In this document: piece by piece, positions 1 to 4,714 of the stretch
How the letters are laid out: every line of letters begins with the position of its first letter
How positions within the stretch are numbered: position 1 is the first letter of the stretch
Position numbers and translations under genes: made by a program
Notes under the pieces: generated by a model
What the model was told of the DNA's origin: nothing
The model's input: only the letters and a program-made list of their open reading frames with translations
Databases searched by the model: none
From: a virus
Taxonomy: Duplodnaviria; Heunggongvirae; Uroviricota; Caudoviricetes
Virus record (IMG/VR): IMGVR_UViG_648276652_000010
Location: 1-4,714 of that record
Strand: one strand, 5' to 3'
DNA length: 4,714 nucleotides

Positions 1-232
<232 letters not shown>

Positions 233-263
233 CTGTTATTTATGCCAAAAATAAAGGCCACTA

Positions 264-464
264 TCAGGCAGCTTTGTTGTTCTGTTTACCAAGTTCTCTG
301 GCAATCATTGCCGTCGTTCGTATTGCCCATTTATCGACATATTTCCCATCTTCCATTACAGGAAACATTTCTTCAGGCTTAACCATGCATTCCGATTGCA
401 GCTTGCATCCATTGCATCGCTTGAATTGTCCACACCATTGATTTTTATCAATAGTCGTAGTCAT
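264..464 (-). CDS. ral: Ral restriction-alleviation protein (66 aa)
   Basis: ATG at 464 (minus). Product MTTTIDKNQWCGQFKRCNGCKLQSEC... matches my recollection of lambda Ral in sequence and length. It sits in the expected place downstream of N in the PL operon. Confidence 0.75.
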   Translation of the reverse strand: MTTTIDKNQWCGQFKRCNGCKLQSECMVKPEEMFPVMEDGKYVDKWAIRTTAMIARELGKQNNKAA

Positions 465-534
465 ACGGATAGTCCTGGTATTGTTCCATCACATCCTGCG
501 GATGCTCTTCGAACTCTTCAAATTCTTCTTCCAT
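448..534 (-). CDS. orf28-like acidic 28-aa peptide (MEEEFEEFEEHPQDVMEQYQDYPYDYDY)
   Basis: Not in the ORF track (too short). ATG at 534 is preceded by GAGGTG (revcomp of 539..544) at 4-nt spacing. Its stop TGA (448..450) overlaps the ral start by 17 bp, the same arrangement I recall for lambda orf28/ral. Confidence 0.5.
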   Translation of the reverse strand: MEEEFEEFEEHPQDVMEQYQDYPYDYDY

Positions 535-542
535 ACATCACC

Positions 543-707
543 TCAAATAAGTGGTTTGCTGCGAAAATAAATACGCTCCCACCAAGTTCCGTATCTATCT
601 ATCCAGTTACACCAATCATCGACACTCCATTTTGTTGTGTCGCATTTTGGCAATTGACATGAATATCTACCTTCTTTGTAAAGTCGGCGTTTGACTTTCT
701 TGAGCAT
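543..707 (-). CDS. Hypothetical small protein (54 aa; MLKKVKRRLYKEGRYSCQLPKCDTTKWSVDDWCNWIDRYGTWWERIYFRSKPLI)
   Basis: ATG at 705..707 (minus) is preceded by GAGGT at 5-nt spacing. The longer 74-aa track ORF begins with GTG at 767 and has no RBS. The stop overlaps the orf28 RBS. Trp/Cys-rich with no recognisable family. It occupies the interval where lambda has sieB. Confidence 0.35.
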   Translation of the reverse strand: MLKKVKRRLYKEGRYSCQLPKCDTTKWSVDDWCNWIDRYGTWWERIYFRSKPLI

Positions 708-770
708 GACTACCTCAATCGTAATAAGCTGGAATTGATTTTCCGCGTTGTTTCTGGCGACCAACACAAG

Positions 771-1154
771 TCACCTTGCTGTCAGTTGTTTTGATTTCCT
801 GTAGCCTGCCGCGTAAAGAGCTACATTTGGAAGACATACACCAGTTTCTGGTTGCCTATGCCCAAACTCATTCGCGTACACAATGGCCGCTCTCTCCAGA
901 TTGCGTCTGTATTCTTTCTGTTGCCAGATCACGTCCTGTGCCATGAACTTAATTGGCTTAGCGTCTTCTATGCGCTCAGGCGTTTCGTGAGTACCTTTAG
1001 CCTGAATCTGCGCTCTGCTTAGAGTAGGGCGGTGTAATACTTCTGAACTTATTGCTTCTTCGCGGGCCAGTACGCCGTTAGCTAATGCCTTTGCCTTTAA
1101 ACGCTCACGACGACGAGAACGTGAATTGCCTTTGAACTGAGTTCTGCGTGTCAT
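771..1154 (-). CDS. N: N-type transcription antiterminator, P22 gp24-like (127 aa)
   Basis: ATG at 1154 with AGGAGG 6 nt upstream. N-terminal arginine-rich motif NSRSRRRERLKAKALANG. The C-terminus ...LPNVALYAAGYRKSKQLTAR resembles the recalled P22 N terminus (...VALYAAGHRKSKQITAR). Lies directly downstream of PL and nutL. Confidence 0.7.
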   Translation of the reverse strand: MTRRTQFKGNSRSRRRERLKAKALANGVLAREEAISSEVLHRPTLSRAQIQAKGTHETPERIEDAKPIKFMAQDVIWQQKEYRRNLERAAIVYANEFGHRQPETGVCLPNVALYAAGYRKSKQLTAR

Positions 1155-1319
1155 ATAGACCTCCTGATGAACTTTGGTGGTGTGGTAGGTGGGAGACCCA
1201 TTTCGACCTGTTTCGGCCTACTTCAATTCGGCAATAGTCCCGCAGGCCTCGCCGCTTTACGTGCGACATATTCCCGTCCATGAACCCTTCACCACACCCC
1301 AAAGTTCACTTTGGTTATT

Positions 1320-1334
1320 GCGCTTTGTCAGCGC
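1320..1334 (-). promoter_or_regulatory. nutL boxB hairpin (GCGCUGACAAAGCGC, GACAA pentaloop, P22 type)
   Basis: Minus-strand sequence GCGCTGACAAAGCGC forms a 5-bp stem with loop GACAA, in the PL leader about 165 nt upstream of the N start. No canonical boxA (CGCTCTTTA) is visible upstream. Confidence 0.5.
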
Positions 1335-1402
1335 CGTAGATTCATATTCGAATCGTTGTATATTCACCGCCCTGGTGAGTAGTGCGTCCTGCTGATGTGT
1401 TT

Positions 1403-1465
1403 AGTATCACCGCCAGTGGTATTTATGTCAACACCGCCAGAGATAATTTATCACCGCAGATGGTT
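1403..1465 (-). promoter_or_regulatory. PL promoter with operators OL1 (1405..1421), OL2 (1429..1445) and OL3 (1449..1465)
   Basis: The three 17-bp sites tatcaccgccagtggta, caacaccgccagagata and tatcaccgcagatggtt match lambda OL1/OL2/OL3 as I recall them. Minus-strand -35 TTGACA is at 1426..1431 and -10 GATACT at 1403..1408, with a 17-bp spacer. Confidence 0.85.
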
Positions 1466-1610
1466 ATCTGTATGTTTTTATATAGATTTATTTTTTGCAG
1501 GGGTGTGTGGCTTGGGAGGTGATCGAGAGATCTGAATTGCGATGTTTAGTGAGTTGTATCTATTAATTTTCAAATAAATACAATTGGTTATGTGTTTTGG
1601 GGCGAACGTG

Positions 1611-1650
1611 AGGCAAAGAAAACCCGGCGCGGTGGCCGGGTTTATTTATT
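1611..1650. terminator. Intrinsic terminator hairpin, potentially bidirectional; t_imm-like end of the cI operon
   Basis: Stem cccggc (1623..1628) pairs with gccggg (1635..1640) around a 6-nt loop. The minus strand follows it with TTTTCTTTG and the plus strand with TTTATTTATT. It sits immediately 3' of the stop of the last cassette gene and before OL. Confidence 0.5.
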
Positions 1651-2296
1651 GCTTAGGAGCTTGTTGTGATGACGATTGGTTAGTTGGAGCGCTCGTTAAT
1701 GGTTGCTGTGTCGGTACCTGTATTATAATTGGAGCCGGGCTGGTTACTGATGGTGACTTGTCATTGCCGGAGATAATCCAACTTGAGGCTAACATCACGC
1801 CAGACAGAATCACAGTAACTAAAGTCAAGCCAACGGCCATCGCCCACTGAGTCGTTGTAAGTCCCGTTTTCAAACCGCCGATTTCACCTTTAATTTCAGC
1901 AATACCTCTCTCAATAGAAGAAAATTGCTGAGTATAATAGGTTTTAAAGTCAGCTGATTCGCGACGCATTTCCGCAGCAATAGACTCTACCTCTGATTTG
2001 TTTTGTGAAAGCTTTGCGTCAAGTTCTTCTCTGGACATTCCGCTCACGCTTACCTCCAGGGTATCACTCTTCATCGCTACATCTTCCTTACTTGGGCGCA
2101 AACCCGTTTCGTCCATGGCGTATGAAACTCTATTTGATACCTTAGCATCAATACCAATACTTTGGTACTGAGATGGATCCCCATAAGGAGAAACGGTTGT
2201 CGCTGCTAGGGTTGCACTAACTATAATACTTGGAAGAACTGATGATGTTGTTCCTGAGGTAGGTTGAACTGAAGAAACTGGCTTCAGTCTTTCCAT
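1646..2296 (-). CDS. Hypothetical membrane-anchored protein (216 aa): Ser/Thr-rich N-terminal region, central predicted coiled coil, one C-terminal TM helix, Ser/Pro/Gln-rich tail
   Basis: ATG at 2296 overlaps the stop of the upstream gene (ATGGAAAGACTGA), suggesting translational coupling. An alternative internal start at 2072..2074 has a strong AAGGAAG RBS and would give 142 aa. Hydrophobic segment AMAVGLTLVTVILSGVMLASSWII. Stop TAA at 1646..1648 abuts the terminator hairpin. Confidence 0.6.
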   Translation of the reverse strand: MERLKPVSSVQPTSGTTSSVLPSIIVSATLAATTVSPYGDPSQYQSIGIDAKVSNRVSYAMDETGLRPSKEDVAMKSDTLEVSVSGMSREELDAKLSQNKSEVESIAAEMRRESADFKTYYTQQFSSIERGIAEIKGEIGGLKTGLTTTQWAMAVGLTLVTVILSGVMLASSWIISGNDKSPSVTSPAPIIIQVPTQQPLTSAPTNQSSSQQAPKQ

Positions 2297-2550
2297 AGCC
2301 CATTATCCCTGAGAGCTACCTGTAATGATTTTACTAATGCAACAGCTTGATCCGGGCTCATTGAGACTGACATGTTAGGGGTCAACTCAACTTTTACTTG
2401 GAAGCTATTCTTTCCTTGCTCATCAGACTGCATGTGATGCTCAAATTCATGGCGGTAAAAAGTAATGATTGTTTCAGCACGATCAGGCGTAATAAGAACT
2501 GATGTGGCGGTCATGTGCTGAGGTATGATTTTAATAGTGTTATCTGACAT
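2284..2550 (-). CDS. Hypothetical soluble protein (88 aa; MSDNTIKIIPQHMTATSVLITPDRAETIITFYRHEFEHHMQ...)
   Basis: ATG at 2548..2550 (minus) is preceded by AAAGGA at about 6-nt spacing. The track ORF extends to an ATG at 2691 (135 aa), but that start has no Shine-Dalgarno. No recognisable family. The 3' end overlaps the next gene. Confidence 0.5.
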   Translation of the reverse strand: MSDNTIKIIPQHMTATSVLITPDRAETIITFYRHEFEHHMQSDEQGKNSFQVKVELTPNMSVSMSPDQAVALVKSLQVALRDNGLWKD

Positions 2551-2742
2551 AAGTATCCTTTTTGTTTCCTTAGTATTTTTTTGCATTGACATCAGAAATA
2601 GCGAATCCACAAGAGTATGAGTAAAGCTAATCAGTTTAGTGATACGGTGACTATTAAAGTGGTAAACCACATCAAAGCTCGCAGAGTGCATACCAGGCTG
2701 TCACACATGACAAAGTAACGAGGATGCCTGATCTCATAGCGC

Positions 2743-2898
2743 TCAAAGAGACATGCCGATAATGGCATTAACCACGCATGACGCCATAAACACGCCGCCA
2801 ACGATGAAGCTGGCTTGGTTCTTCCTGGTAGCGCCAAGAGTCAACAGAACCACTGAAAGGGCAAAAAAAGGTATCGCGATTATGCTGAACGTGTTCAT
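2743..2898 (-). CDS. Small membrane protein (51 aa; MNTFSIIAIPFFALSVVLLTLGATRKNQASFIVGGVFMASCVVNAIIGMSL), two predicted TM helices
   Basis: Not in the ORF track. ATG at 2896..2898 (minus) with GAGG at 5-nt spacing. Two hydrophobic stretches are separated by a basic loop, RKNQ. First gene after cI on the same strand, 77 bp downstream of the cI stop. Confidence 0.45.
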   Translation of the reverse strand: MNTFSIIAIPFFALSVVLLTLGATRKNQASFIVGGVFMASCVVNAIIGMSL

Positions 2899-2975
2899 GT
2901 TGACCTCAACTTATTTCGATTCTCCATCACCCTTAATCCGCCGCCCCATGTGTTTGTTGTGATTCGTTGCTGGCC

Positions 2976-3692
<717 letters not shown>

Positions 3693-3695
3693 TTA

Positions 3696-3765
3696 AATCT
3701 ATCACCGCAAGGGATAAATATCTAACACCGTGCGTGTTGACTATTTTACCTCTAGCGGTGATAAT
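3696..3765. promoter_or_regulatory. OR3 (3700..3716), OR2 (3723..3739), OR1 (3747..3763) with divergent promoters PRM and PR
   Basis: tatcaccgcaagggata and taacaccgtgcgtgttg match lambda OR3 and OR2. OR1 reads tacctctAgcggtgata, against lambda tacctctGgcggtgata as I recall it. PR -35 ttgact is at 3737..3742 and -10 gataat at 3760..3765. PRM hexamers lie on the minus strand at 3719..3724 and 3696..3701. Confidence 0.9.
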
Positions 3766-3780
3766 GGTTGCATGTACTAA

Positions 3781-3990
<210 letters not shown>

Positions 3991-3997
3991 GTAACAC

Positions 3998-4043
3998 CGC
4001 TATTTTCACAATGGACATTCGTCCTACGTCGCTGACAAAGCGA
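3998..4043 (+). promoter_or_regulatory. nutR: boxA-like cgctattttcaca (3999..4011) and boxB hairpin ucgcuGACAAagcga (4029..4043)
   Basis: The boxB has a 5-bp stem and GACAA loop, the same loop as the nutL boxB. It lies between cro and cII on the PR transcript. The pentamer CTACG precedes both boxB copies. Confidence 0.45.
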
Positions 4044-4128
4044 GTCCCAATATATCTGACCAACTAAGGCCATATGCGTTTCCACGCATACCTTTCAACT
4101 AGCTATTCACTATTGGAAATCATAAGAA

Positions 4129-4425
4129 ATGGAACAAACAAGTTACAGCAAACTATCCCAGCGTGACGTTGATCGCGCAGAAACAGATTTACTCATCAAC
4201 CTGTCAACGCTTACCCAGCGCGGTCTGGCAAAGATGATTGGCTGTCATGAATCGAAGATAAGCAGAACGGACTGGAGATTTATTGCTTCAGTCTTGTGTG
4301 CTTTCGGAATGGCATCAGACATCAGTCCGATTAGTAGAGCTTTTAAGTATGCGCTTGATGGAATCACAAAGAAAAAATCCCCGGTGGCCGCCGGGGACTC
4401 TAAGCAAATTGATATGCAATTCTGA
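4129..4425 (+). CDS. cII: CII-like transcriptional activator (98 aa), divergent from lambda CII except at the C-terminus
   Basis: In the lambda cII position. The HTH-like segment GLAKMIGCHESKISRTDW and the C-terminal ...KKKSPVAAGDSKQIDMQF parallel lambda ...NKKRPAATERSEQIQMEF. The 32-nt spacing to the O start matches lambda. Confidence 0.7.
   Translation: MEQTSYSKLSQRDVDRAETDLLINLSTLTQRGLAKMIGCHESKISRTDWRFIASVLCAFGMASDISPISRAFKYALDGITKKKSPVAAGDSKQIDMQF
4372..4397 (-). terminator. t_oop-like intrinsic terminator embedded in the 3' end of cII
   Basis: Minus strand reads GTCCCCGGCGGCCACCGGGGATTTTTTC: a 7-bp GC stem (4378..4384 with 4391..4397), 6-nt loop and a run of six T. Same position relative to the cII stop as lambda t_oop. 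Confidence 0.6.
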
Positions 4426-4448
4426 GGGAATTACTGGATCAATCAACA
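4372..4448 (-). ncRNA. oop: oop-like antisense RNA (about 77 nt), 5' end inferred by analogy to lambda
   Basis: The 3' end is defined by the terminator above. The 5' end is placed by lambda spacing only. The expected pO -35 would fall inside the IS629-like insertion. Confidence 0.35.
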
Positions 4449-4461
4449 GGAGTCATTATGA
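4446..4461 (+). pseudogene. O: Replication initiator O: RBS and start codon only, interrupted by IS insertion
   Basis: caggagtcattATGA matches the lambda O translation start. From 4459 the sequence is the IS left end rather than O codons. Confidence 0.5.
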
Positions 4462-4714
4462 ACCGCCCCGGGAATCCTGGAGACTAAACTCCCTGAGAAA
4501 GAGGTAAACAGAATGACTAAAAATACTCGTTTTTCCCCCGAAGTCCGTCAGAGGGCGATTCGTATGGTTCTGGAAAGTCAGGGCGAATATGACTCACAGT
4601 GGGCGGCAATTTGTTCCATTGCCCCAAAGATTGGCTGTACACCGGAGACTCTGCGTGTCTGGGTACGCCAGCATGAGCGGGATACCGGAGGCGGTGATGG
4701 CGGGCTCACCACCG
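4459..4714 (+). mobile_element. IS3-family insertion sequence (IS629/IS3411-like), left inverted repeat and 5' part; continues beyond the window
   Basis: TGAACCGCCCCGGGAATCCTGGAGACTAAACT at 4459 matches the IS629 left end as I recall it, followed by orfA with an AGAGG RBS. Confidence 0.8.
4513..4714 (+). CDS. IS3-family transposase OrfA (HTH, InsE-like), 3' partial
   Basis: [67 protein letters not shown]... is the characteristic IS629-type OrfA N-terminus. The frame is open to the window end. Confidence 0.85.

Follow-up and report, generated by a model that had tools for sequence, protein, structure and literature searches.

An IS629/IS1203-type insertion at the cII–O junction of a lambdoid prophage probably parts gene O from its Shine–Dalgarno sequence and leaves its coding sequence whole

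The immunity region and the elements at its borders

The 4714 bases analysed here, which we denote the window, cover the immunity region of a lambdoid prophage, lambda-like and of HK97 immunity. It carries ral (264–464), N (771–1154) and cI of the lambda/HK97 immunity type (2976–3689) on the minus strand, together with cro (3790–3990) and cII (4129–4425, plus strand), whose 98-amino-acid product matches Pfam Phage_CII (E = 2.1e-31) and in relatives carries the annotation CII family regulator. cII is the last intact phage gene ahead of an insertion at the right border. The window is 98.8% identical to phage HK97 over positions 751–4461 and 98.5–99.6% identical to many E. coli prophages over 230–4461; in an exact-protein look-up all eight of its proteins proved common, each occurring on at least 726 contigs. 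The position held by rexA and rexB in lambda is occupied by genes similar to HK97 gp48 and gp49 (216 and 88 amino acids; 1646–2296 and 2284–2550) and by an open reading frame for a hydrophobic product of 51 amino acids (2743–2898), all on the minus strand. Look-ups gave these three neither a function nor a Pfam assignment, and they are candidates for exclusion genes expressed in the lysogen.

Insertion sequences form both ends of the window, which is probably a short-read contig broken at repeats. On the left, positions 1–229 are the right end of IS100kyp (IS21 family), with the C terminus of istB extending to position 163, the IS terminus ...TTGACA at 229 and the junction at 229|230. This element sits 34 bp past the ral stop codon, within the pL operon, and both early operons of the prophage are interrupted by an IS just outside the immunity/N region.

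On the right, positions 4459–4714 (plus strand) are the left end of an element of the IS629/IS1203 group (IS3 family), which runs off the end of the window. All 256 bases match a full 1310-bp copy (L004, 1801–3110), and the same 1310-bp element is found in thousands of E. coli records, with a median of three copies per genome. Its left inverted repeat, TGAACCGCCCCGGGAATCCTGGAGA, was read directly at about 4459–4483, and the right one, ending in ...TCTCCAGGAAACCCGGGGCGGTTCA, was read in the identical full copy and in a second viral contig described below (L028). Direct comparison of the two repeats shows that their first 25 positions are complementary at 23, and the element ends in 5′-TG and CA-3′. 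orfA begins at 4513, reads in the direction of pR and O, and encodes an IS3-type OrfA (Pfam HTH_Tnp_1, E = 1.1e-07). The window stops at codon 67 of orfA, and the features of orfB were read from the full copy that it matches at 100%; there, orfAB has a programmed −1 frameshift (annotated as frameshift/pseudoknot), rve domains and a match to NF033516, transpos_IS3 (NCBIfam). The three full copies examined are all 1310 bp long, start with TGAACCG, end with CGGTTCA and are flanked without exception by 3-bp direct repeats (gga/gga, gac/gac and acg/acg). These observations agree with the preliminary description of this DNA, which had recognized an IS629-type, IS3-family left end and its orfA from 4459.

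Under the ISfinder convention, isoforms share above about 90% of their DNA sequence and above about 95% of their protein sequence. Compared with the IS1203 of O157 strain 7784, which is a copy annotated by PGAP and not an IS629 or IS1203 type sequence, the element is 95.0% identical in nucleotides, with 106 of 108 residues (98%) shared in OrfA and 275 of 288 (95.5%) in OrfB. PGAP names the present variant merely 'IS3 family transposase'. At the level of the group, the label IS629-like appears a fair one.

The two junctions and the reading frame of O

Across the left junction the window reads ...CAACAGGAGTCATTA|TGAACCGCCCCGGGAATCC..., and the site is laid out as ...CAAC AGGAG TCATT A|TG AACCGCCCCGGGAATCC.... 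Every match to HK97, to lambda-type prophages and to 20 or more E. coli prophages ends at position 4461. The intact relative TB354 (L001) is 100% identical to the window over 4100–4461 and then diverges from it, reading ...TCATTATGACAAATACAGC past the breakpoint, which is lambda-type O; its continuation, ATGACAAATACAGCAAAAATACTC, is the start of that gene. The preliminary description had located the insertion at the start of O, and the end of phage homology at 4461, where TB354 runs on into O, confirms this placement. Both the phage (ATGA...) and the IS end (TGAACC...) can account for the TGA at 4459–4461, so that homology alone leaves the breakpoint ambiguous by three bases; the canonical IS end, TGAACCG, sets it at 4458|4459.

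Stranded on the cII side of the element is the Shine–Dalgarno sequence of O, AGGAG (4448–4452, plus strand), which precedes the O ATG with the same sequence and spacing in TB354 and lambda and forms a duplex of −6.9 kcal/mol with the 3′ end of 16S rRNA. Next to the element lies TTA (4456–4458), made up of the A with which O begins and the two bases in front of it, which we assign as the left copy of a 3-bp target-site duplication. Because the IS begins with TG, an ATG is rebuilt at this junction (4458–4460) from the phage A and the TG of the element. The ATG of O, like its ribosome-binding site, had been taken to be intact; the latter has indeed been kept, but the former is a chimera. It opens a nine-codon frame behind the Shine–Dalgarno sequence of O (4458–4487, plus strand) that encodes just MNRPGNPGD* and stops 25 nt ahead of the orfA ATG.

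What follows cII varies among related prophages. An identical cII and 33-nt cII–O spacer precede at least four different replication modules (window 4426–4461; L001 and L017–L026 at about 4298–4340), namely a lambda-type O of 299 amino acids, an O of 312 amino acids, a 53-amino-acid open reading frame with an O of 273 amino acids, and DUF2740 with a 299-amino-acid protein and DnaB. All of them begin with ATGACAAA, which places a mosaic recombination boundary within the opening codons of the gene that follows. The exact look-up of cII returned only long contigs with uninterrupted replication modules. The window itself keeps the Shine–Dalgarno sequence and the A of the ATG, and it is only L028 and TB354 that point to a lambda-type O as the downstream gene.

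From the 3-bp rule, the right junction of the insertion is predicted to read ...GGTTCA|TTA|TGACAAAT, which keeps the ATG of O itself and its entire frame. We scanned public collections with one degenerate pattern that fits either junction, GTCATWAN{0,3}TGAACCGCCCCGGG. Two matches in the species-representative genome contigs (genome_contigs) and ten in the metagenome contigs (metagenome_contigs) were unrelated IS3-family ends with no phage similarity. The viral contigs of IMG/VR (viral_contigs) gave one relevant match, IMGVR_UViG_648276652_000012 (L028). This contig ends within an IS and, in the orientation of O, reads ...ACACTCTCCAGGAAACCCGGGGCGGTTCA|TTA|TGACAAATACAGCAAAAATACTCAAC..., also written ...CCCGGGGCGGTTCA|TTA|TGACAAATACAGC..., which matches the predicted right junction, with TTA directly after the IS end ...GGTTCA. 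The IS parts of the two contigs represent one variant, which shows no mismatch to the 256 bp of the window or to the 240 bp of L028, stretches over which IS1203 copies have 8–12 mismatches. The O gene of L028 is complete (299 amino acids; Phage_rep_O PF04492, E = 5.6e-36; TIGR01610, E = 5.3e-39) and is followed by P (233 amino acids) and then ren, in a replication module 98.8% identical to that of phage 21/lambda. As a check, the preliminary description had proposed a search for the IS right end, the 3-bp duplication and the rest of O; L028 has an IS right end, the TTA expected of the duplication and a complete O.

This junction bears directly on the view, put forward in the same description, that the IS breaks the O frame at codon 1–2 and leaves an O-null prophage with no replication from ori-lambda. 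The left junction, where an ATG behind the Shine–Dalgarno sequence of O runs straight into the IS and phage homology ends at 4461, lends itself to that view. However, the TG of this ATG belongs to the IS end TGAACCG, the 3-bp rule puts the true ATG at the other junction, and L028 presents that other junction with the ATG of O itself and the full 299-amino-acid O. An intact O frame downstream had been named beforehand as the observation that would speak against truncation; it is what L028 contains, so the claim of a cut O fails and the conclusion that the prophage cannot replicate is left unsupported. We consider an O-null prophage very improbable.

L028 is a separate public record from IMG/VR, and the sequence of the window stops within the IS; we infer the adjacency of the two in the genome of the window. 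Alternatively, the IS at 4459 might mark the endpoint of a rearrangement or deletion that removed or relocated O, P and later genes, with L028 coming from another strain or from a non-adjacent place. IS elements bound the window on both sides, the element is multicopy (the median of three per genome noted above), the partner side is out of view, and the second IS in the same prophage, IS100, makes an IS-mediated rearrangement conceivable. On the other hand, L028 offers a perfectly complementary junction that agrees in IS variant, orientation and TTA, just as a simple insertion without rearrangement would leave it. A search of 5426 complete E. coli genomes found no uninterrupted copy of either the left or the right junction, and two independent insertions at the same nucleotide are therefore unlikely. 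On balance, a rearrangement seems unlikely here. An assembly artefact, that is, a chimeric contig joining phage to an IS read, would suit a short contig that ends in repeats, but chimeras form without regard to IS termini, and here phage sequence gives way to the element precisely where its inverted repeat begins; the independent, matching right junction with its target duplication speaks against it as well, and we find such an artefact scarcely credible.

With high probability, a single simple insertion, in one strain or one clone, gave rise to both the junction of the window and that of L028, and with L028 as the partner junction TTA would be duplicated around the IS. If this model is true, the IS right end in the source genome adjoins TTATGACAAAT of a lambda-type O, and the contig beyond the IS starts ...GGTTCATTATGACAAAT. 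Our main reading, to which we give a probability of roughly 0.8, is that O has lost its Shine–Dalgarno sequence and its proximity to pR, now lies 1.3 kb farther away and keeps its coding sequence whole. Under this reading, which is drawn from the sequences of the two junctions, O would be intact but uncoupled from its ribosome-binding site because of the TG end of the IS and the 3-bp duplication.

The target, TCA|TTA|TGA, resembles abutted IS termini (...TTCA/TGAA...), and a 9-nt stretch (window 4453–4461; L028 13338–13346) is common to both junctions. A preference of the IS for targets like its own ends was considered and rejected, as three other copies of the IS group sit at targets with no such resemblance; the likeness may be due to chance.

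Signals of oop, pO and O around the insertion

Ahead of the insertion, an oop-like antisense RNA body (4369–4447, minus strand) overlaps cII at its 3′ end; TB354 has the same sequence there, and lambda oop is collinear with it. The body of 79 nt (4447 to 4369) forms two hairpins (−29.1 kcal/mol, z = −4.46), and a terminator scan located an intrinsic terminator, a hairpin and then a T run, at 4401 to 4374 on the minus strand. The window thus contains a short antisense body with an intrinsic terminator at the cII 3′ end, the 5′ end of which we place at about 4447 by inference from lambda. An Rfam search of the whole window at E ≤ 1 returned a spurious lncRNA match only, Rfam being without an oop family.

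The promoter of this RNA, pO, has a −10 hexamer that adjoins the O start codon, and it modulates pR-driven replication (PMC3985674). In the intact relative TB354, pO is TTGAGT-17-CATAAT with a TG motif (minus strand, L001 3384 to 3356), a sequence equal to the pO of lambda, and the oop terminator is also found. In the window, alignment shows a rebuilt −10, CATAAT (4455–4460, minus strand), composed of TAAT from the phage and CA from the IS end. The native TG extension is gone (−15/−14 are GT), the IS occupies the place of the −35, and candidate −35 elements at a spacing of 16–18 nt match TTGACA at three of six positions at most. A promoter scan of window 3900–4714 found no promoter-like site, and the combination of a −35, a 17-nt spacer and a TG-extended −10 is absent directly upstream of the oop body of the window. 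L028, in turn, carries a complete pO at 13317–13345, facing the IS right end and antisense to orfB. The earlier suggestion that the likely oop promoter is displaced therefore stands for the cII side, where the −35 has been replaced by the IS; pO itself, however, has been relocated intact and is whole on the O side of the IS. With TG...CA termini on the element and with TCA and TGA on either side of the target, each junction regains an ATG (top strand) and a CATAAT (bottom strand).

The right inverted repeat of the IS contains, on its inward-reading strand, a weak terminator-like hairpin of five pairs, CCGGGTTTCCTGG and then AGAGTGTTTT (L028 13354–13366, corresponding to the IS at about 1289–1301, minus strand; L004 3101 to 3089). 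The relocated pO lies directly upstream of it, and antisense transcripts that enter the IS could end there.

We propose that a single simple transposition brought a 1310-bp IS629/IS1203-type element into the compact cII–O junction of a prophage with HK97 immunity and lambda replication, duplicating TTA. The left side would keep pR, cro, cII, the oop body with its terminator, the Shine–Dalgarno sequence of O and a dummy ATG with a nine-codon frame leading into the transposase gene. The right side, represented by L028, would hold a complete pO firing antisense into the IS, the ATG of O itself and an intact O–P–ren operon. Transcription of O and P would now come solely from pR read-through over 1.3 kb of sense-oriented IS. 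Scans of the IS found no sense-strand site resembling an intrinsic terminator, and no promoter-like site either in its interior or directed outward at its right end; we rejected on this ground both an outward promoter in the IS right end that drives O and a sense-strand terminator in the IS that blocks read-through from pR. N-antiterminated transcription could plausibly cross the IS, with N and the cro–cII interval intact.

At the right junction, GGGGCGGU takes the place of the native AGGAG and keeps its spacing of 5 nt. Paired with the anti-Shine–Dalgarno of 16S rRNA, this sequence leaves one internal mismatch and has a calculated energy of −7.2 kcal/mol (−6.9 kcal/mol for native AGGAG); opening the O initiation region costs 8.1 kcal/mol at the right junction compared with 5.4 kcal/mol in the native context. 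Mismatched Shine–Dalgarno pairings are often weaker in practice than their computed energy. The orfB stop lies 44 nt upstream of the O ATG. On these grounds, sequence rules and simple energy calculations, O synthesis is expected to be lowered, not necessarily abolished, and replication after induction to be attenuated. The normal 77-nt oop RNA is likely to be largely lost, and the antisense, RNase III-dependent damping of cII would therefore be weakened (PMC3985674, PMC5869508), OOP being an antagonist of CII (PMC5869508). In addition, the convergent arrangement of pR and pO, which modulates replication (PMC3985674), would be stretched by 1.3 kb. One insertion in the overlapping cII/oop/pO/O node of lambda would thus redistribute four signals, and both the replication of the prophage and the killing of its host on induction would hinge on read-through and on a makeshift initiation site. 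The succession of Shine–Dalgarno sequence, ATG and IS is one that a reader or a pipeline would call a disruption of O; a sequence-only reading of this kind overcalls.

Damping of O and P may plausibly be of selective advantage where IS100 has already interrupted the pL operon of the prophage. A further possibility is that the IS has been placed under phage control, and possibly selected, as a step of prophage domestication. After induction, pR would then transcribe the transposase, the strong Shine–Dalgarno sequence of O would translate a nine-codon leader 25 nt before orfA, and the relocated pO would make an antisense transcript over the IS; damped O and P would shield the host from replicative killing or from P toxicity, and immunity, N, ral and the HK97 gp48/49-like genes would be retained. 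We regard domestication of this kind as rather doubtful.

Relation to known elements and insertions

The element shares with IS629/IS1203 of E. coli O157:H7 and Shigella its length of 1310 bp, its TG...CA ends, imperfect inverted repeats of ~25 bp, an orfA (HTH_Tnp_1) and orfB (rve) joined by a programmed −1 frameshift, and a 3-bp duplication; unlike the PGAP-annotated IS1203 of O157 strain 7784, the present copy is a variant, at 95.0% nucleotide identity. Those elements, too, often reside in lambdoid prophages, and IS629 is a main driver of E. coli prophage diversity (PMC4587872). With the oop/pO arrangement of lambda the window shares an antisense oop body, with its terminator, at the 3′ end of cII, and TB354 has the same promoter hexamers, but in the window the body is detached from the −35 and the TG motif of pO.

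IS3-family elements of the IS629/IS1203 type also occur elsewhere in cII–O, in 13 complete genomes found by the left-junction search and in 32 found by the right-junction search (hits H1–H13 and H103–H114; for example L002 3422–4731 and L003 3830–5139). Their hosts include O157:H7, O103:H2 and avian and bovine strains. In O157:H7 strain 7784 and its relatives, an element of the same group lies in the same orientation in the same operon, at a site 62 bp further on and inside the 53-amino-acid open reading frame of another replication module; in O103:H2 FWSEC0007, group, orientation and operon are again the same and the site is about 470 bp inside O. Unlike the insertion in the window, neither of these splits the node of Shine–Dalgarno sequence, ATG and pO. 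Their occurrence suggests that IS elements repeatedly strike the early-right operon, or that insertions there are retained.

The event is an ordinary one, known in kind as IS damage to a prophage; the precise site alone is unrecorded, and the locus is no new system, adding a further example to the well-documented IS629-type erosion of E. coli prophages. The classical precedents in the cII–O region of lambda are the polar IS insertions r14 and r32. In trapped, derepressed lambda prophages, moreover, laboratory selection for survival yields spontaneous P::IS2 'replicative-killing-resistant' mutants (PMC4926192). Like both of these, the insertion described here would place a host IS in the pR–cII–O–P operon of a lambdoid prophage and lower its replication functions. 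In contrast to both, the IS appears to lie between the Shine–Dalgarno sequence and the ATG of O, where it would break no coding sequence and part pO from oop.
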